55,283 nt of DNA from positions 1 through 55,283 of IMG/VR virus record IMGVR_UViG_3300025640_000003. One strand, 5' to 3'. A program made the translations under genes and the position numbers. Shown here piece after piece: positions 181-55,024 of this stretch. This DNA comes from a virus. Lineage: Duplodnaviria > Caudoviricetes. Numbering within the stretch: position 1 is the stretch's first letter; each line of letters starts with the position of its first letter. Below the pieces are notes generated by a model. It was not told the DNA's origin and did no database searches. It saw only the letters and a program-made list of their open reading frames with translations.

Positions 181-505
181 ATATACACCTGCCAGTTGGG
201 TAGTAATTAAGATCGACGGAGATGACCCCCATTATCGTGTACTTGGTGGTTGGTCAGGCGGTTATTTGACAGGAGACTCTTGGAGACTTAATAGCGGTAT
301 CGTCAAGGCAGAATTTGATGGAGACTATTGGTGTTTCTATGGGTCTAGTGGTAGTTGCTACAAGTGTTACGTTGATAACTATGGTCTTAAAATGTCTAAT
401 GCACCTGTATACAACCAACTAAAAGAGAAATACGGTGATGACATAACACTATTAAAAGACCAAGAGTGGGTGCAAAAAGACTGGGACTGGTTGATAGATG
501 AATGA
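173..505 (+). CDS. Hypothetical phage protein
   Basis: 110-aa ORF with AAGGAG RBS; contains VLGGWSGGYLTGDSWRLNSGI, a motif typical of small phage proteins. Confidence 0.8.
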   Translation: MNEYTPASWVVIKIDGDDPHYRVLGGWSGGYLTGDSWRLNSGIVKAEFDGDYWCFYGSSGSCYKCYVDNYGLKMSNAPVYNQLKEKYGDDITLLKDQEWVQKDWDWLIDE

Positions 506-659
506 AGAACTAAAACAAAAGCTTAGAGACATGAGTACATTAAGTGACTCTAGGACACCTAAGGATGCACTTAAGTATATTGAGTCTCTAGAAAGTGAAC
601 TATTTGAACTTAAGAACGCACCGATACAATTTTTACTAGATCATGGAAAGGGAGAATGA
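498..659 (+). CDS. Small hypothetical protein (53 aa, not in ORF track)
   Basis: ATG 498 to TGA 657-659; fills the gap and overlaps both neighbours. Confidence 0.55.
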   Translation: MNEELKQKLRDMSTLSDSRTPKDALKYIESLESELFELKNAPIQFLLDHGKGE

Positions 660-1063
660 TGACTGACTACACAACAACAAAAAACGTGGCTGAGAGTGTC
701 ACAAAAAACTATTCGGAATTGTTGAAAGGATTGAGCGTGGACACGGAAGCAGCTTGGAAGAAACTGTTTGAAGCCTCACTGGAGGAGACAGACAATGTAC
801 GCAGTAGACTGATTAGCCTTGTGGATTCCCTTGTAAAAACTGTGCTTGGAGAAGACTATGATGAGTATGTAACCTCTCTTGTCGTCAAAGAGCTTAAATG
901 GTCTATAGAAAACTTTGAAGAGGGTAATGACCGTTGGGAGACACCTGATAACAGTGCTCATGATCTTGCCTCAATGTACCGTGCACTTGCATACCACATG
1001 GTTCCATCAGAATACAAAGAGTATGTTCAACAGCGTCGAGAGGTGAAGAACAATGAAGTTTAG
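656..1063 (+). CDS. Hypothetical protein
   Basis: 135-aa ORF with GGGAG RBS. Confidence 0.75.
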   Translation: MMTDYTTTKNVAESVTKNYSELLKGLSVDTEAAWKKLFEASLEETDNVRSRLISLVDSLVKTVLGEDYDEYVTSLVVKELKWSIENFEEGNDRWETPDNSAHDLASMYRALAYHMVPSEYKEYVQQRREVKNNEV

Positions 1064-1217
1064 TGAGAATAGGGTGGATGGTTTTAAGGTTGAATTTGAA
1101 GTACCTAGTTGCTACACAAGCGAAGAGGTCCTAGAAGAGTTTAAGAACTTCCTACGTGCGTGTGGCTATGTAATAGAGTATGATGATGTCTCACCTAAAG
1201 AGGAGTTCTATGAGTAG
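1053..1217 (+). CDS. Small hypothetical protein (54 aa, not in ORF track)
   Basis: GAGGTG RBS; ATG 1053 to TAG 1215-1217. Confidence 0.6.
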   Translation: MKFSENRVDGFKVEFEVPSCYTSEEVLEEFKNFLRACGYVIEYDDVSPKEEFYE

Positions 1218-2778
1218 TAACCCACACCAACCTTGTCCATATGAAAGCTGTGGCTCAAGTGACGCATTTAACTGGGATGATGGTGGCTTCGGTTTCTGTC
1301 ATGCCTGTAGTCAGTCCTATCCCCAGAAGGGTATGGGTAACACATTTGATTGGGTAGAAGATACATACCCTCTGCCAAAAAGGATAAACCCTATGACTGT
1401 AGAAATTGGAGGCTTTACGTATGACGGTATCCGTTCCATCTCACCTGACGTGTGTAAACTTTACGGTATTCAACTCCAAAAAGATACTGATGGTAATCCT
1501 GTACGGTATGCCTTTAAGTACCCTAGCAACGTAAAGTATCGTGGGTACGACGAAAAGAAGTTCTGGTCTAAGGACAAAGGTTCCTTGCTTGATCTGTTTG
1601 GTCCAGAGTTTAATGCAGGCACAAGTAAGCGTATCTACCTGACTGAGGGGGAGTTTGATGCAGCCTCTTTGTATGAAGTTCTTGGTCAGTCTTACCCCGT
1701 TAAGGGTATCCCCGGTGCAGGTATCGGTGAGAAGTTTATTAAGGCTAACCACGCATACCTAAACTCTTTCAGTGAGATCGTATACGCTGGGGAGTTAGAT
1801 CAAGCAGGTAAGGGTGCTGCTGAGAAGCTCTTCGAGGTATTCCCAGAGAAGTTCTACTTTGTACCTATGACCAAACACAAGGACGCTAACGAGTTCCTTA
1901 TGGCTGGTGATAGTGCAGACCTTAAGTGGGCAGCAGTTAAACCTCAGCGATACTCACCGGATAACTTCTTTTGTTCTGACCAAGACGTAGAGGATGCTAT
2001 CCGTAAGGAGAACCCATACGAGTATGTACCCACAGGTCTTTCAGGTTGGGATGACAAACTACGGGGTCTGGTTAAAGGTGGCATTACTTTCATTAAAGCT
2101 AAGCGTGGACTAGGTAAGACAGAGCTTATTCGTTTCTTTGAGACAGCCATGCTTAAGGATGAGACATGTCGTATTGCTTTACTTCACGCAGAGGAGATGA
2201 AGTCTACAACCTATCGCGCTATGGCATCTTACGAGTTGGGTATTAACGTACGTACAAAGGATGATGCTAAGGCTAATGGTATCCCTGAGGATAAAGTTGT
2301 GGAGGCAGCTAAGAGGGCTACAAAGGGGGAGCGTACAATTATCTTTGAGATGCGTTCTCACGATGATCCTATGAAAATCCTTGAGTATATCCGACTAGCG
2401 GCCACTGTGTATGGTGCAGACTTTATCTTTATCGACCACATCCAACGACTTGCTTATCTCTCTCAGAGTGGTGTTGATGGTGCTACATCTATGCTCACTG
2501 CCCTAGGTTCACGTTCAGCCCAGCTTGCAAAAGAGTTGAACATTGGTGTCGTATTTATCAGTCAAACAAATGACGACGGGCGGACAAAATATGCATCAGC
2601 ACTTGAGGAGGAGGCAATCATCTGTGTTAAGCTTGAACGTGATCTTGAGTCAGAGGATGAGGTAGAGCAAAACACTACAGAGTTCGTGATCGACAAGAAC
2701 CGTCCATTCTCAAAGCTTGGCAGTGCTGGTACCGTCTACTACGATCCTGATACAACTCTATTGACGGAGTCTACCTAA
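1210..2778 (+). CDS. T7 gp4-like DNA primase/helicase
   Basis: Zn finger CPYESC...CHAC, TOPRIM LTEGEFDA, Walker A AKRGLGKT, Walker B IFIDH, KNRP; GAGGAG RBS before ATG 1210. Confidence 0.93.
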   Translation: MSSNPHQPCPYESCGSSDAFNWDDGGFGFCHACSQSYPQKGMGNTFDWVEDTYPLPKRINPMTVEIGGFTYDGIRSISPDVCKLYGIQLQKDTDGNPVRYAFKYPSNVKYRGYDEKKFWSKDKGSLLDLFGPEFNAGTSKRIYLTEGEFDAASLYEVLGQSYPVKGIPGAGIGEKFIKANHAYLNSFSEIVYAGELDQAGKGAAEKLFEVFPEKFYFVPMTKHKDANEFLMAGDSADLKWAAVKPQRYSPDNFFCSDQDVEDAIRKENPYEYVPTGLSGWDDKLRGLVKGGITFIKAKRGLGKTELIRFFETAMLKDETCRIALLHAEEMKSTTYRAMASYELGINVRTKDDAKANGIPEDKVVEAAKRATKGERTIIFEMRSHDDPMKILEYIRLAATVYGADFIFIDHIQRLAYLSQSGVDGATSMLTALGSRSAQLAKELNIGVVFISQTNDDGRTKYASALEEEAIICVKLERDLESEDEVEQNTTEFVIDKNRPFSKLGSAGTVYYDPDTTLLTEST

Positions 2779-2813
2779 TGACTTAACATTAACTTTTTAC
2801 AAGAGGAGATACA

Positions 2814-4700
2814 ATGACAGCCTACATCTTTGACCTTGAGTCTGACGGTCTTCTCGACACTGTCACAAAGATACACTGTGTGTCTTATACTGAACCTAAC
2901 GGCAAAGAGGTAAAGACTGCTACTACCAAAGAGGGCATAAAAGAGTTTCTTGATAAAGCCACAACACTCATAGGCCACAATATTATTCGCTATGATGTCG
3001 TAGTCCTTGAGAAGATACTTGGGGTTAAGATCAAGCACAAGCTCTATGACACATTACCAATGTCTTGGGTATTCAACCCCAGTAGAGCTAAGCATGGCCT
3101 TGATTCATTCTTTCCTGACTATGGTATTGAGAAACCTAAGATCACGGACTGGGAGAACCTTACCCTACCTGAGTATGTCAACCGCTGTGAAGAAGATGTT
3201 AAGATTAACCAAGCTTTGTGGTTAGACCTTACTAAACGTGCTAACTTTATCTACAAAGACAAGAAAGAGTTGGACAGGTTCTTACAGTATCTTACTTTCA
3301 AGATGAAGTGTGCAGCAAAACAAGAGGAGCTAAAATGGAAAATCGATAAAGACCTTGTCACAAAGTGTGTTGAGACCCTACGACAACAACAAGAAGAGAA
3401 GATCGAAGAGCTAACCAACGTCATGCCTTTACAAAAAGTTTACGCTAAGAGAGGTAAACCTAAGGTTATGGAGAAGAAGGATGGCTCTATGTCTGCTAAC
3501 GCAGAGAAGTGGTTTGAGTTGTTAGAGTCAGAAGGGTTGCCAAAGGACCACAAAGGCCCTGTGAGTGTCCTTAAAGAGCTTAAGCAGGCTAACCCCAAGT
3601 CCTCTGATCAGGTTAAAGAGTGGTTGTTTAGTCTGGGTTGGGTTCCTTGTACCTTTGACTACAAAAAGAATGAGGATGGAACTGAGCGAACTGTACCTCA
3701 GGTACGTAAAGATGGGGAACTCACTAGATCAGTCAAGCTTCTTATCGATAAAGACCCTGCGGTAGAAGTTCTTGATGGTCTTACTGTTATTCAACACAGG
3801 TTGTCTATCTTTGAGGGTTTGCTTGATGCAGAGGTTGATGGCTATGTTAAGGCAGAGGTTGGGGGTCTTACAAACACCTTTAGGTTCAAACACAATAAGC
3901 CTTTGGTTAATCTCCCCGGTGTTGACAAGCCTTGGGGTAAAGAGATTAGAGGTTCCTTGATAGCCCCTGAGGGTTACGTATTGTGTGGCTCAGACATGGT
4001 CTCTCTTGAGTCAACAACTAAGCGTCACTTTATCTACCCCTATGACCCAGAGTATGTTGCAGAGATGTCACAAGAAGGTTTTGACGAGCACCTAGACCTA
4101 GCGGTTAAAGCGGGACATCTTAGCTCAGAGGACTACGACTTTTATACAAGATCAGATGAGGAGACAGTGAATGATGTAGCTAGGTTTAAGGGTATCAAGA
4201 AGGTACGTAAAAAGTTCAAGCCAGTAAATTACAGCGCAGTGTATGGTGTCAGGGAGCTTAAACTTTCTAGAACCACTGGCATGGGTAAAGCAGAGGCAAG
4301 AGATATGTTAGCTGCATACTGGAGACGCAACTGGGCGGTCAACAAGTTTGCTACTGATAGAGAGGCCGGGGTACGTACAATCGCAGGTCAGATGTGGATA
4401 CAAAACCCAGTGAGTAAGTTCTGGCACCCGCTGAGGTTCAAGAAGGATATCTTTTCTACACTGAATCAAGGTACTGGTGTGTTCTGTTTTGACACTTGGA
4501 TTGCCTTCTATTCTTCTCGTCGTCCGGATATCCTAGGGCAGTTTCATGACGAGACAATTAACCCCGTCAAGATCGGAAAGGAGGAAGATCATGAGGCTAC
4601 ACTTCGTTGGGCTATCGCCATGACAAACAAGAAACTCAAGCTTAACATTGACTTAGACATCGATGTACAATTTGGGTCTAACTATGCACAAATCCATTGA
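2814..4700 (+). CDS. polA: Family A DNA polymerase with 3'-5' exonuclease
   Basis: ExoI FDLESDG, ExoII GHNIIRYD, motif A GSDMVSLE, motif B RKKFKPVNYSAVYG, motif C QFHDE. Confidence 0.95.
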   Translation: MTAYIFDLESDGLLDTVTKIHCVSYTEPNGKEVKTATTKEGIKEFLDKATTLIGHNIIRYDVVVLEKILGVKIKHKLYDTLPMSWVFNPSRAKHGLDSFFPDYGIEKPKITDWENLTLPEYVNRCEEDVKINQALWLDLTKRANFIYKDKKELDRFLQYLTFKMKCAAKQEELKWKIDKDLVTKCVETLRQQQEEKIEELTNVMPLQKVYAKRGKPKVMEKKDGSMSANAEKWFELLESEGLPKDHKGPVSVLKELKQANPKSSDQVKEWLFSLGWVPCTFDYKKNEDGTERTVPQVRKDGELTRSVKLLIDKDPAVEVLDGLTVIQHRLSIFEGLLDAEVDGYVKAEVGGLTNTFRFKHNKPLVNLPGVDKPWGKEIRGSLIAPEGYVLCGSDMVSLESTTKRHFIYPYDPEYVAEMSQEGFDEHLDLAVKAGHLSSEDYDFYTRSDEETVNDVARFKGIKKVRKKFKPVNYSAVYGVRELKLSRTTGMGKAEARDMLAAYWRRNWAVNKFATDREAGVRTIAGQMWIQNPVSKFWHPLRFKKDIFSTLNQGTGVFCFDTWIAFYSSRRPDILGQFHDETINPVKIGKEEDHEATLRWAIAMTNKKLKLNIDLDIDVQFGSNYAQIH

Positions 4701-52229: not shown

Positions 52230-53330
52230 ATGACAGGGATGAGGTACCTAAAAAGAGTTAAGACAAGTAAAGGTTCTTTTGAGTATAAGTTCAACCCACC
52301 TAGGTCAGCTATCAAGGCTGGTGTCGTCAAGGCAAGGACATTCAAAGATGGACGACAAGCAAGGTATGAAGTTCCACGTCTCATAGAAAAAGTAGATGCT
52401 TGGAAAAGGGGAGAGTTAGTTGCCGATAACATTGGACCTAAGAGTAGGTTAGTAGATATCTTCAATCACTATCTGAACACAGAACACTTCAAATCTTTGT
52501 CGTCTAATTCTCAAATTGCTTATGAGATAAATATCAAAAATCTCTTAAAGACAAAAACTAAACAAGGTAAGACTTTCGGTGATACTTGCTTGCATAACCT
52601 TACTGCTGTCTTTTGTTCTCATATCTATAATTCTTGGGTAAAGGACAACGGAGTTCCAACAGCAAACAAATGGGCCACACTGTTCGGTGTTCTTATGAGC
52701 TACGCCATGTCCCTAGACCTGATAACAAATAACCCAATGTCCAAGGTTAAGAAGCTTAAACACAAACCAAGGTCAGAGGTATGGTCTGAGGGACAAGTAG
52801 AGAAGTTCGTGGAGACAGCCTTCACAGAGTTCCGTTGGAGATCGATAGGCATCCTTGCACTTCTCTGCTATGAGTGGGCACAGAGACCTACAGACATAGC
52901 TAACCTCAAGTGGGACGCTGTAGACCTCCAGAGAGGCTCTGTAACGATCACACAGAGCAAGAGAGGGGCCACGGTGTACCTACCCCTAGCAAAGCACCTC
53001 AAGGCCCTCCTAGAGGCTCAGAATGAGGACTTAGGTTTCCAGCCATTAGTTGTACCTGATACACACAGACCTTCGGGTGGCTATGGACCGTTAACCGCAC
53101 AAAGAATGTCAGTACTTGTGAGGCAGGTTAAGGAGACATCTGGCACACCCGAAAACTTAAGGATTGGAGACTTAAGAAAATCTGCAATAACGGAGATGGT
53201 ATCTTCTGGGGTTGATACTTCTGCGATCATGTCTGTAACAGGGCATAAAAATATACAGTCTCTTAATCCCTACTTGAAAAACACAATAGAGGCAGCTACA
53301 TCTGCTTTAGAGAAAAGGAAGAAACTGTAG
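52230..53330 (+). CDS. Tyrosine recombinase/integrase-family protein
   Basis: QRPTDI.NLKW, QSKRG, DLRKSAITEM, TGHKN....PY. Confidence 0.9.
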   Translation: MTGMRYLKRVKTSKGSFEYKFNPPRSAIKAGVVKARTFKDGRQARYEVPRLIEKVDAWKRGELVADNIGPKSRLVDIFNHYLNTEHFKSLSSNSQIAYEINIKNLLKTKTKQGKTFGDTCLHNLTAVFCSHIYNSWVKDNGVPTANKWATLFGVLMSYAMSLDLITNNPMSKVKKLKHKPRSEVWSEGQVEKFVETAFTEFRWRSIGILALLCYEWAQRPTDIANLKWDAVDLQRGSVTITQSKRGATVYLPLAKHLKALLEAQNEDLGFQPLVVPDTHRPSGGYGPLTAQRMSVLVRQVKETSGTPENLRIGDLRKSAITEMVSSGVDTSAIMSVTGHKNIQSLNPYLKNTIEAATSALEKRKKL

Positions 53331-53340
53331 TACATAAATA

Positions 53341-53378
53341 CAACACAAGGTGATCTCTAAGAAGGTTGCCTTGTGTTG
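53341..53378. other. Inverted repeat between the recombinase and the tRNA locus
   Basis: CAACACAAGG...CCTTGTGTTG (10-bp perfect arms). Confidence 0.6.
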
Positions 53379-53408
53379 GTACGACACGTAAGATACAATT
53401 CACTTATT

Positions 53409-53435
53409 GGCTCCATAGCTCAACTGGATAGAGCA
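53409..53435 (+). pseudogene. 5' fragment of the interrupted tRNA-Arg(UCU)
   Basis: GGCTCCA TA GCTC AACTGGATA GAGC A = acceptor 5' strand plus D-arm. Confidence 0.85.
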
Positions 53436-53770
53436 TGTTCAATCGAATGACAATTAGCACAAAGGAGGTCACACTTATCAAGTTCTACTACAATCTTATC
53501 CCAAGACCTCAGTCTGAGCTTGTTCCACATAACATCCTTAGTGGTTGGGTCCATGTGGTGAAACTGTAGTGCTGCGTAATGATCATCATAACCACAACGA
53601 TTGCACTTACCCCCTTTGTAGTTGATGGCGTCTTTCTTCTTTTGTATCCATCTATCTACACAGTATCGGTTGAAGCAACTCTTGCAGGATGATGCTCCTT
53701 TCTTTCTATCAGCTTGTTTATAAAAATCAGATAAAGGTTTTTCTTTGTGACAAGTAGTACAAGTTTTCAT
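53420..53770 (-). CDS. HNH endonuclease inside the interrupted tRNA
   Basis: KGGKCNRCGY....ALQFHH.DP..K...ELDKCDLLCANCH..EH; N-terminal Zn ribbon; ATG 53770. Confidence 0.9.
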   Translation of the reverse strand: MKTCTTCHKEKPLSDFYKQADRKKGASSCKSCFNRYCVDRWIQKKKDAINYKGGKCNRCGYDDHYAALQFHHMDPTTKDVMWNKLRLRSWDKIVVELDKCDLLCANCHSIEHALSS

Positions 53771-53786
53771 GTTTATTCTTTCATTA

Positions 53787-53874
53787 GGTTTCCGTCCCCA
53801 CAACAGTCTTCTAAACTGTTCACGTTAAAAAGGTGGGAAGGAGTGGAGAGGTTCGATTCCTCCGGGAACCTCCA
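53787..53874 (+). ncRNA. Atypical tRNA-like RNA, anticodon UCU, no D-arm
   Basis: GGTTTCCG/CGGGAACC acceptor plus TCCA; AACAGT-CTTCTAA-ACTGTT arm; GAGG-TTCGATT-CCTC T-arm. Confidence 0.75.
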
Positions 53875-53904
53875 TAGTTATACGCAGGTTGGATAGAAAG
53901 TCAA
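53875..53904 (-). promoter_or_regulatory. Promoter TTGACT-N16-TATAACTA directed at the HNH gene
   Basis: Recurrent phage motif inside the insert. Confidence 0.7.
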
Positions 53905-53925
53905 AGTCTAATACAAATATGGACT

Positions 53926-53970
53926 CTTCTAATCAGCAGGTTCGAGGTTCGAGTCCTCGTGGAGTCACCA
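53926..53970 (+). pseudogene. 3' fragment of the interrupted tRNA-Arg(UCU)
   Basis: CT TCT AA TCAGC AGGTT CGAGG TTCGAGT CCTCG TGGAGTC ACCA. Confidence 0.85.
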
Positions 53971-53986
53971 AATCAAGAGGTACTAA

Positions 53987-54652
53987 ATGACACAAATTCA
54001 AGCAACACTGATCGACCACATGGGTAGCGACTTATCGACAGTTAACGCAGCACGGGTTAGCTTTGGTAAGACAAGTCAGTGGGAGTTCAGTGAAGACCCA
54101 GATGATACAGGAACCCTATCAGAGCGTGACACTAAACTAATTAGGTACCTTGCCAAGCATAACCACCTGTCGCCTTTTGGTCATGCCTTTGCTTCGTTCC
54201 ATGTTAAAGCACCTCTATTCGTACACGCTCAACTTGTAAAACACAAATTCTTAAGGGTCAACACAATCAGTCGCCGTTACGTTGACGATAGCGTAGTACT
54301 TTATACACCTGACACATGGCGTGGACGTAGTGAAGACAAGAAACAAGGTTCTTCGGATGACATGGATTGGGAGCATACACCTTATTGCTACGAGACCTCT
54401 CTAAACAACTATAAGTTCTTGTTGGACACTGGTGTGGCTCCTGAGATGGCTAGGATGGTACTACCTCAAGCACTCATGACCGAGTTTTATTGGAGTGGTA
54501 GCCTTGATGCTTTTGCTGCCATGTGTGTACTACGTTGTGCCCCTGACACTCAATATGAGTCACGTGTTGTTGCTGACCAGATCAGTGAAGTGATGGGTAG
54601 GCTTTTTCCTGTTTCGTGGGAAGCTTTAATGAAAGGACAAACAAATGACTGA
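53987..54652 (+). CDS. thyX: Flavin-dependent thymidylate synthase
   Basis: VNAARVSF, HLSPF, QLVKH....NTISRRY, GVAPEMARMVLPQ, LRC...TQYE. Confidence 0.93.
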   Translation: MTQIQATLIDHMGSDLSTVNAARVSFGKTSQWEFSEDPDDTGTLSERDTKLIRYLAKHNHLSPFGHAFASFHVKAPLFVHAQLVKHKFLRVNTISRRYVDDSVVLYTPDTWRGRSEDKKQGSSDDMDWEHTPYCYETSLNNYKFLLDTGVAPEMARMVLPQALMTEFYWSGSLDAFAAMCVLRCAPDTQYESRVVADQISEVMGRLFPVSWEALMKGQTND

Positions 54653-54705
54653 CCTGATAGAGAGATTGCGCGAACTGGAAACCCATCTTGCTAAGGACGA
54701 CAGAT

Positions 54706-54852
54706 ATGTTTAGGCATTTCAAAACACTGAAAGAAGCTAAGGCGCACATCGCGGCAAACCCGCATCGCGACCTTGTTTATAAAAAGCACAAAGGCAAGCG
54801 GCCTAAGCCTTATCAGGTCGGTTCACGCCTGTCTTTCTTGCACTTCACATAA
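54706..54852 (+). CDS. Small basic hypothetical protein (48 aa)
   Basis: TAAGGA RBS; MFRHFKTLKEAKAHI... Confidence 0.5.
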   Translation: MFRHFKTLKEAKAHIAANPHRDLVYKKHKGKRPKPYQVGSRLSFLHFT

Positions 54853-54865
54853 GGACGCCAAAGAT

Positions 54866-55024
54866 ATGCACTGGATGGACAAAGCCGTAGAAGAACTTGA
54901 GACAGACCTTGAAAACGGCCTGATCAGTCAAGAAGAATTTCGCGCCCAAATGCGCGACCTGCAAGCCGAGCTGCGCGAGGCTCAATTTGAAGCCGCGCAA
55001 GAAGCCCACGACAACTACTATTAA
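54866..55024 (+). CDS. Small acidic protein
   Basis: TAAGGA RBS; ELETDLENGLISQEEF. Confidence 0.6.
   Translation: MHWMDKAVEELETDLENGLISQEEFRAQMRDLQAELREAQFEAAQEAHDNYY

Follow-up and report, generated by a model that had tools for sequence, protein, structure and literature searches.

What becomes of a tRNA gene that has been cut in two by an endonuclease gene, and which tRNA then reads the corresponding codons, are the questions raised by a locus in the IMG/VR virus record IMGVR_UViG_3300025640_000003. This complete record of 55,283 bp, with direct terminal repeats at its ends and a GC content of 44.7%, was analyzed at full length and is referred to here as the window. Between positions 53409 and 53970, two pieces of a tRNA-Arg(UCU) gene enclose an HNH endonuclease gene on the minus strand and an 88-nt tRNA-like RNA (the cargo RNA) with the anticodon of the broken gene. 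ARAGORN reported no tRNA gene over the whole window, in which AGA and AGG make up 254 of the 625 arginine codons of the 29 long open reading frames (ORFs), so that a tRNA reading them would be needed. We consider it probable (roughly 0.78) that the locus holds a nonsplicing HNH homing cassette that destroys a tRNA gene and brings the replacement with it. A free-standing HNH gene and a head-to-head tRNA(UCU) gene would have entered the phage's own tRNA-Arg(UCU) gene as one cassette of ~0.5 kb, between position 26 and the anticodon loop. As there is no intron ribozyme, the broken tRNA could not be restored, and the reading of AGA and AGG would pass to the tRNA of the cassette.

The 5' remnant (53409..53435, plus strand) comprises tRNA positions 1 to 26, with the 5' strand of the acceptor stem, the dinucleotide TA, the whole D-arm, and A26; four intact tRNA-Arg(tct) genes on viral contigs (L045 to L048) begin with the same 26 nt. 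Alignment with intact tRNA-Arg(tct) genes places positions 32 to 76 in the 3' remnant (53926..53970, plus strand), which holds the loop CTTCTAA, the 3' strand of the anticodon stem, the variable loop AGGTT, the T arm, the 3' strand of the acceptor stem, A73, and an encoded CCA. The two acceptor strands pair at 7 of 7 positions, with one G-U pair, across an insert of 490 bp (53436-53925). Aligned with six intact genes, the remnants account for every position except 27 to 31, the 5' strand of the anticodon stem, so precise excision of the insert would not restore the stem. The original prediction, made from the DNA sequence alone, had described the two pieces with their complementary acceptors, the 490-bp insert with an HNH gene on the minus strand and an 88-nt RNA bearing the identical CTTCTAA loop, and the failure of excision to restore the stem, and all of this was confirmed. 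It had also anticipated GCTGA as the missing strand. Indeed, a Logan contig from run X6, which belongs to another metagenome study, links 53435 to 53926 through exactly these five letters, as expected of an intact allele, and this joint delimits both remnants.

Logan contigs from four runs were compared with positions 52600 to 54900 of the window; the 24 runs listed included no RNA run. In run X1, possibly the source sample, a 4002-nt contig covers 52600-54107 with zero differences, which makes misassembly of the locus, named in the original prediction as a possible refutation, unlikely and speaks against an artifact of a single assembler. A 696-nt contig from run X5 represents a near-identical strain; its three pieces carry 1, 3, and 7 differences, respectively. 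This contig lacks 53423-53749, that is, the HNH gene except for its first seven codons, and 53877-53961, which includes most of the right-hand tRNA remnant. It retains 53750-53876, including the cargo RNA.

The same junctions were found in five genomes, namely, the window, loci L005 and L134, and the Escherichia coli phages Ptacy1479 (Kuravirus) and Bas92. The last four share one order, with a 5' remnant, an antisense HNH gene whose stop codon lies in the D-arm region, a UCU-reading tRNA, GGATAGAA, and a 3' remnant with CCA. At L005 (HNH 71% identical), the stop codon of the opposite-strand HNH gene lies in the D-stem, and a canonical tRNA-Arg(tct) gene is followed by GGATAGAAT and the 3' remnant with CCA. 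The layout of L134 (HNH 66% identical) is similar, but its inner gene is a member of the cargo RNA family (100.3 bits with our covariance model R1). Both E. coli phages combine a 57%-identical HNH with a canonical tRNA-Arg(tct); here, the insert begins after A26 of the resident tRNA-Arg and ends immediately 5' of CTTCTAA. The inner gene thus reads UCU at all five split loci, as a canonical tRNA-Arg in L005, Ptacy1479, and Bas92 and as the unusual RNA in the window and L134. The sequences of the remnant acceptor strands vary between loci, and they pair at 7/7 positions within the window, L005, L134, and Bas92 and at 6/7 in Ptacy1479. Neighboring genes differ among the window, L005, L134, and the kuraviruses. 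The target in L134 may have been a CCU gene, since the decayed loop there reads ACCTAA.

Empty sites, which the original prediction had proposed to look for as intact alleles in relatives, are present among the kuraviruses. In phages WFI101126 and phiEco32, the locus follows the end of the same upstream gene and contains a single, uninterrupted tRNA-Arg, and the downstream flank of Bas92 matches these empty-site phages as well. The cassette is therefore polymorphic for presence and absence at a single kuravirus locus, with Bas92 and Ptacy1479 filled and WFI101126 and phiEco32 empty. For the window, the X6 allele and the X5 sibling with its deleted HNH gene provide indirect evidence of such polymorphism. 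According to a published survey, kuravirus-like phages carry a single tRNA, Arg(TCT) (PMC9965538). Recurrence in five genomes, filled and empty alleles, the GCTGA allele, and the X5 variant all support the central proposal of the original prediction, a nonsplicing insertion that kills tRNA-Arg(UCU) and brings a substitute with the same anticodon.

The right end of the cassette (53875..53925, plus strand) consists, in a three-way alignment (A4), of a degenerate second copy of the target from position 18 onward (GGATAGAA at 53891-98) and a decayed stretch resembling an anticodon arm. A direct repeat (D6), TGGATAGA, occupies 53425-32 and 53890-97. At 5/5 loci, GGATAGAA, which corresponds to target positions 18 to 25, lies 14 to 15 nt 5' of the anticodon loop on the right side; as the left remnant also extends to position 25 or 26, about 9 nt (positions 18 to 26) are duplicated on both sides of the cassette. 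Positions 24 to 31 of the right copy are scrambled at all five loci and never pair with the 3' strand. The right end of the window carries 21 nt that are present in neither L134 nor L005. A pattern scan for this end of the cassette returned the L005 contig and one chance match (L213, intergenic between structural genes).

The HNH gene (53420..53770, minus strand) encodes 116 amino acids and was assigned from the ORF listing, a match to phrog_2255 ("HNH endonuclease"; E = 7e-36), and homologues of 57 to 71% identity in the conserved position in L005, L134, Ptacy1479, and Bas92. Comparison with these homologues places the start at the ATG at 53770 and not at the TTG at 53803. The translation contains the pattern CxxC ... 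HH ... N ... CxxCH and ends in ...SIEHALSS. Its last four codons and the stop codon (53420-53422) are the antisense of the tRNA D-arm, with the stop inside the antisense D-stem, in agreement with the original prediction. Pfam gave only a weak Stc1 zinc-finger match, and a sequence search of the PDB returned no meaningful match (best E = 0.61). The ORF is antisense to the interrupted tRNA gene and is not embedded in a self-splicing intron or intein.

The HNH enzyme would cut intact tRNA-Arg genes near the conserved junction of D-arm and anticodon stem, and the cassette would then spread by break repair from short tRNA flanks. The D-arm sequence of the target, TAGCTCAACTGGATAGAGCA, would be a good recognition site, since it is identical in all six intact tRNA-Arg genes that were aligned. 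In each cargo tRNA, the D-stem differs from that of the target or is absent, and the cargo genes might escape cutting because of this difference in the D-region.

The cargo RNA of the window (53787..53874, plus strand) is a pseudoknotted tRNA-Arg(UCU)-like RNA that scored 101.6 bits with R1, a model that aligns 22 distinct family sequences (alignment A6). Its acceptor stem is formed by 53787-94 with 53863-70, the pseudoknot helix by 53797-801 with 53833-37, the anticodon stem by 53803-07 with 53815-19, the variable stem by 53821-23 with 53843-45, and the T stem by 53848-51 with 53859-62; the loop CTTCTAA occupies 53808-14, with the anticodon TCT at 53810-12, and CCA is encoded at 53872-74. As judged from the aligned sequences, the fold common to the family comprises an 8-bp acceptor stem, a 5-bp anticodon stem, a 3-bp variable stem, and a 4-bp T stem with TTCGA but no D-arm. 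The acceptor and anticodon stems are separated by only 8 nt. The discriminator base is variable and is followed by CCA, and a conserved run of A residues precedes the strand of the missing D-stem in the variable loop. In UCU members, all seven letters of the loop CUUCUAA are invariant (21 of 21 distinct sequences).

On the R1 alignment, which was fitted to the modeled helices, 99.8% of 550 cells were paired, compared with 72.9% after shuffling and 39 to 49% when partners were slid. Compensatory changes occurred in 17 of 25 pairs, with 7/8 in the acceptor stem, 5/5 in the anticodon stem, 3/3 in the variable stem, and 2/5 in the pseudoknot helix. The covarying acceptor pairs include the eighth (columns 8 and 77), which is GC in 17 sequences, AU in 4, and UA in 1. 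The pseudoknot helix joins the strand after the acceptor stem to the loop of the variable arm and crosses the variable stem. It was paired in 100% of cells and occurs as CCCAC/GTGGG, CCAGC/GCTGG, CCAAC/GTTGG, CCTGC/GCAGG, CCGAC/GTCGG, and CCCTC/GAGGG. As the pseudoknot was not modeled as pairs in R1, its covariation is an independent result. This helix stands in for the D-stem. Features of canonical tRNAs that the cargo RNA keeps are the acceptor stem, a 7-nt anticodon loop with U33, the T arm with TTCGA, and the 3' CCA. It does not form a cloverleaf with a D-arm, and no RF00005 match was reported. Assignment to tRNA-Sec (RF01852) was rejected, with a score of 31.5 bits against a cutoff of 47 and the anticodon UCU instead of UCA.

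The family extends well beyond the cassette. A BLAST search of 53300-54000 against cultured phages matched 40 records, and among the 30 listed, 29 matched only the 88-nt RNA, at 82 to 86% identity. These 29 come from tRNA clusters of Acinetobacter T4-like phages, Escherichia phage Av-05, Vibrio phages, and Salmonella phage Arash, and none of the 29 is annotated as a tRNA in GenBank, where the RNA carries either no annotation or that of a hypothetical protein. At least 22 distinct sequences are known, with further members from pattern scans of IMG/VR, and the family has been found in T4-like Acinetobacter phages, Avunavirus, 112- to 117-kb Vibrio phages, and IMG/VR viral records of 40 to 235 kb; among these, prophages or temperate phages may account for the records of 40 to 65 kb. 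With the anticodon and the variable pseudoknot positions unconstrained, a scan returned 30 matches in 29 loci, 28 with UCU and 2 with CCU (L037 and L236), both of which read arginine AGR codons. In L037, a 115.7-kb viral contig, a CCU member and a UCU member stand in tandem (1449-1536 and 1543-1627).

None of the six genomes or regions holding the cargo RNA had a canonical tRNA-Arg(UCU). The tRNAs reported by ARAGORN include no canonical tRNA-Arg in Av-05 (14 tRNAs), Vibrio phage D260 (17), G002 (25), Lazarus (8), or the incomplete G001 (6), and the 18 tRNAs of the L228 region include Arg(cct) and Arg(acg) without Arg(tct). Over 28 family loci, ARAGORN called a single member (L215, as tRNA-Arg(tct) with a 93-nt fold), and it called none at the other family loci checked. 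Because ARAGORN, the Rfam gathering thresholds, and GenBank annotation all miss the family, the tRNA sets of many large phages are undercounted and seemingly lack tRNA-Arg(UCU). No HNH homologue was detected by tblastn in the flanks of 28 other family loci (the cultured phages L001 to L003 were outside this search). The cargo RNA therefore appears to be an ordinary part of phage tRNA sets that the cassette picked up by chance. It would be charged with arginine and used in translation.

One alternative is splicing, with the 490 bp as a self-splicing intron, group I or other, that contains an antisense HNH gene and is removed at the RNA level. Group I introns do interrupt tRNA genes beside HNH homologues (L141, L147, and L158), and the insertion is close to the anticodon arm, where tRNA introns usually occur. 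However, the group I intron model RF00028 found no match in 53200-54200 at E ≤ 10 (the original prediction had likewise seen no group I core) or in L134 and L005 at E ≤ 0.01, while the same search detected the introns of L141, L147, and L158 as positive controls. Only ~67 nt of the insert lie beyond the HNH gene and the cargo RNA, too short for a ribozyme core; the joined pieces would be without the 5' strand of the anticodon stem; and the X5 variant has dropped most of the right remnant and retained the cargo RNA. An intron of any kind is thus highly improbable, and the group I reading was rejected as largely refuted by the absence of an RF00028 match and the incompleteness of the joined tRNA. 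A different origin would be the integrase encoded just upstream, which would make the pieces by-products of integration and the 3' piece the core of a phage attachment site (attP) for a host tRNA-Arg(UCU) gene, with the HNH gene and RNA merely nearby. The attP cores in tRNA genes typically start in the anticodon loop, as does the 3' piece. The integrase gene ends about 78 to 80 bp before the 5' piece, lone 3' tRNA fragments beginning in the anticodon loop are present in the relatives L075, L091, and L128, and L096 has a tRNA-Arg(tct) gene beside a homologous integrase. Nevertheless, the tRNA-Arg gene is split in the same way in L005, with no integrase homologue by tblastn in 5.6 kb of sequence, and in lytic kuraviruses with clear empty sites. 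Furthermore, the 5' remnant is neither needed nor explained by an attP, most of the 3' piece is missing from the X5 variant, and an exact search for the 41 nt at 53926-53966 in 185,579 species genomes, among which the host may not be represented, gave 0 matches. We regard this explanation as unlikely, although it can coexist with a homing cassette, since the 3' remnant may still serve as attP.

A last alternative concerns the inner RNA, which, instead of working as a tRNA, would serve the HNH enzyme as a cofactor or act on a host anticodon nuclease as its decoy or inhibitor. The invariance of the loop in UCU members would suit a decoy, the core is so unusual that charging by arginyl-tRNA synthetase (ArgRS) is uncertain, and phage tRNAs are described as countering tRNA-cutting defenses (PMC10264068, PMC13096335). 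On the other hand, the stacked acceptor and T helix of 8 + 4 pairs amounts to 12 bp, as in elongator tRNAs according to the account of the acceptor branch in PMC5389517. CCA is encoded, the anticodon exists in UCU and CCU versions (in tandem in L037), and the genomes with the RNA have no canonical tRNA-Arg(UCU). Moreover, an ordinary tRNA-Arg(UCU) fills the same slot at 3/5 split loci, and the flanks of the 28 other family loci hold no HNH homologue by tblastn. The same result, together with the occurrence of HNH homologues alongside ordinary tRNAs, leaves unsupported the second option of the original prediction, that the RNA is a cofactor or guide for the nuclease. Overall, a nontranslational role of the RNA seems improbable, although not to the degree of the intron.

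Several observations weigh against a cassette that homes by destroying and replacing its target. The lineage of the window itself yielded no empty site. The intact allele in the X6 contig, which has only 28 nt on its shorter side, may be a host gene or that of another phage. In most thyX relatives, the interval from int to thyX contains no tRNA, and the tRNA of L096 lies upstream of int. The lone 3' fragments of L075, L091, and L128 belong here as well, and the closeness of the integrase suggests that the local history may be partly integrase driven. Nor are the 9-nt duplication and the scrambled positions 24 to 31 predicted by simple break repair. Finally, no tRNA lay within 3 kb at 22 of the 28 viral HNH loci.

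In collaborative homing, a free-standing endonuclease works with a group I intron that does not encode it, and the interruption of the target protects the genome of the endonuclease. The proposed HNH cassette resembles this arrangement in that the endonuclease is encoded outside an intervening sequence and HNH homologues adjoin intron-bearing tRNA genes (L141, L147, and L158). It differs in that it lacks a ribozyme and leaves the target broken, the function being supplied by a second gene. The term is linked to PMC3984707, PMC2988022, and PMC2790892. SegB of phage T4 is, like the HNH gene, a free-standing endonuclease gene among tRNA genes; it often adjoins tRNAs (PMC13096335), recognizes a conserved tRNA-gene sequence, a motif of the T arm, and carries neighboring tRNA genes along on homing (PMC2330249). 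Unlike the cassette, SegB is of the GIY-YIG type, is intergenic, and splits no tRNA gene, and the passages devoted to it describe no like-for-like replacement tRNA. In fractured genes, a free-standing endonuclease gene likewise breaks a conserved phage gene in two, but these are protein genes mended by split inteins in the examples described (Dassa et al. 2009, PMC2677866), whereas here an RNA gene is broken and would be replaced instead of mended. Integrase elements that destroy a tRNA gene and supply the same isotype are known from tRNA-dependent lysogeny, where, in the account given, the integrase disrupts a host tRNA gene at integration (Guerrero-Bustamante and Hatfull 2024, PMC10865867), while the HNH cassette disrupts a phage tRNA gene.

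The cargo RNA also has partial counterparts. With its 8-bp acceptor stem, 4-bp T stem, and long variable arm, it resembles the 8/4 tRNAs and allo-tRNAs (Mukai et al. 2017, PMC5389517), whose report gives the 12-bp acceptor branch as what EF-Tu recognizes, and it shares the lack of a D-arm with mitochondrial tRNA-Ser(AGY/UCU) as described in PMC7609411. However, the phage 8/4 tRNAs treated in PMC5389517 are Ser and His tRNAs with the D-arm listed as a part, whereas the cargo family is Arg, with UCU and CCU anticodons only. A pseudoknot between D-region and variable loop is not mentioned for 8/4 tRNAs in the main text of that paper, the supplementary figures of phage 8/4 tRNAs aside. Neither a nonsplicing replacement cassette in a split tRNA nor a pseudoknotted tRNA-Arg without D-arm was found in the literature covered; this is no proof of absence, because subscription journals and supplements, including Figures S2 and S3 of PMC5389517 with the phage 8/4 tRNAs, were outside that coverage.

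Homing endonucleases are thought to persist in conserved genes inside self-splicing introns or inteins or beside their target. The cassette would add a third route, in which the target is broken for good and a working spare is carried along. Rather more tentatively, the cargo family could be an undescribed architecture of AGR tRNAs, with an 8/4 branch, no D-arm, a pseudoknot as D-stem, and an A-rich strand placed to cross the pseudoknot helix, that works as an elongator and escapes something aimed at ordinary tRNA-Arg, with gene replacement by the HNH cassette as a third homing strategy. The threat escaped could act at the DNA level (homing endonucleases specific for tRNA genes, such as this HNH) or at the RNA level (host tRNA-cutting defenses). 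If the RNA is charged and used, the structural range of bacterial-type elongator tRNAs would be wider, with a bearing on recognition by ArgRS, EF-Tu, and the ribosome, on tRNA engineering, and on the arms race over tRNA-targeting defenses. Natural filled, empty, and decayed alleles, together with Bas92, an E. coli phage in culture from the BASEL collection, make the system directly testable.

The split locus of the window sits between a tyrosine integrase gene, int (52230..53330, plus strand; Pfam Phage_integrase, E = 4e-19; phrog_1 integrase, E = 1e-37), and the gene for the flavin-dependent thymidylate synthase ThyX (53987..54652, plus strand; Pfam Thy1, E = 4e-42), with ~600 bp between int and the 3' tRNA fragment. 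By tblastn, int lies upstream of thyX in 24 related loci, the same order as in the window. In L096, the order is tRNA-Arg(tct) (1814-1890), integrase (1927-2835), and thyX (2983-3666), as compared with integrase, split tRNA-Arg, and thyX in the window, and the tRNA-Arg gene and the integration module may be linked in phages of this group. The fragments of L075, L091, and L128, on the minus strand near int/thyX relatives, start in a ...CATAA... anticodon loop, end in CCA, and lack a 5' partner over a distance of 75 nt, resembling attP cores for a tRNA-Met-like gene. The promoter that the original prediction had placed in the insert was not recovered by a simple scan of 53250-54050, which returned 0 sigma-70 sites and no terminator. 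A perfect 10-nt inverted repeat (53341-53350 and 53369-53378, spacer of 18 nt) between the int stop codon and the 5' remnant could be either a terminator-like hairpin or a recombinase binding site.

Relatives of the HNH protein gave tblastn matches in 438 cultured-phage records. Of 79 metagenome loci with a homologue, 60 were scanned with ARAGORN and the other 19 (L194 to L212) with R1 only. In support of the proposed cassette, a tRNA lay within 1.5 kb of the HNH homologue at 26 of the 60 loci and within 3 kb at 6 of the 28 viral loci. Locus L135 (HNH 61% identical) has a canonical tRNA-Arg(tct) just upstream. At L006, a second kind of D-arm-less UCU RNA (3256-3335, plus strand; 29.6 bits with R1), not called by ARAGORN, begins at the stop codon of the HNH gene there, which lies on the same strand and whose product is 68% identical. 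More than 25 tRNA genes are densely arrayed around a 44%-identical homologue on a 39-kb viral contig (L198 to L200, about 500-3200).

Some HNH homologues lie ~100 nt from tRNA genes with true group I introns. RF00028 placed such introns in tRNA genes at L141:888-1121 (minus strand, 85.6 bits) and L147:1141-1377 (minus strand, 74.5 bits) and in a tRNA-Lys(UUU) gene at L158:1224-1399 (plus strand, 37.2 bits, E = 4e-8). As stated in a review, all phage group I introns known by 2014 were in protein genes (PMC3984707), and in view of that statement, these intron-bearing phage tRNA genes may merit attention. Directly upstream of HNH homologues in L148, L154, L159, L160, and L171, the split-tRNA script found tRNA genes with an insert of ~155 to 190 nt, the 5' part of the tRNA lying about 232 to 233 nt before the T arm; these inserts are probably of the same intron type as that of L158. 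The script also flagged L162 and L198 to L200. Its plus-strand matches in L005 and L133 appear to be due to chance, as does one of its two candidates in L134.

Unusual tRNAs other than the cargo family were noted in the same phages. In Vibrio phage D260 (L130:3333-3415; 66332-66411 of the record), a tRNA-sized RNA between tRNA-Leu and tRNA-Pro is missed by ARAGORN and scored 27.6 bits with the Rfam tRNA model, against a threshold of 29, and 25.9 bits with R1; it may be another noncanonical tRNA. A tRNA with a CTA anticodon, labeled tRNA-Pyl by ARAGORN, is encoded in Acinetobacter phage Lazarus (L002:429-503), in a related IMG/VR contig (L039:5296-5370), and in the 172-kb phage G002 (L131:13076-13150), and these tRNAs are possible amber suppressors. 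Phage G002 also encodes two ARAGORN-called tRNAs with four-base anticodons (L131:1003-1076 and 3426-3501).

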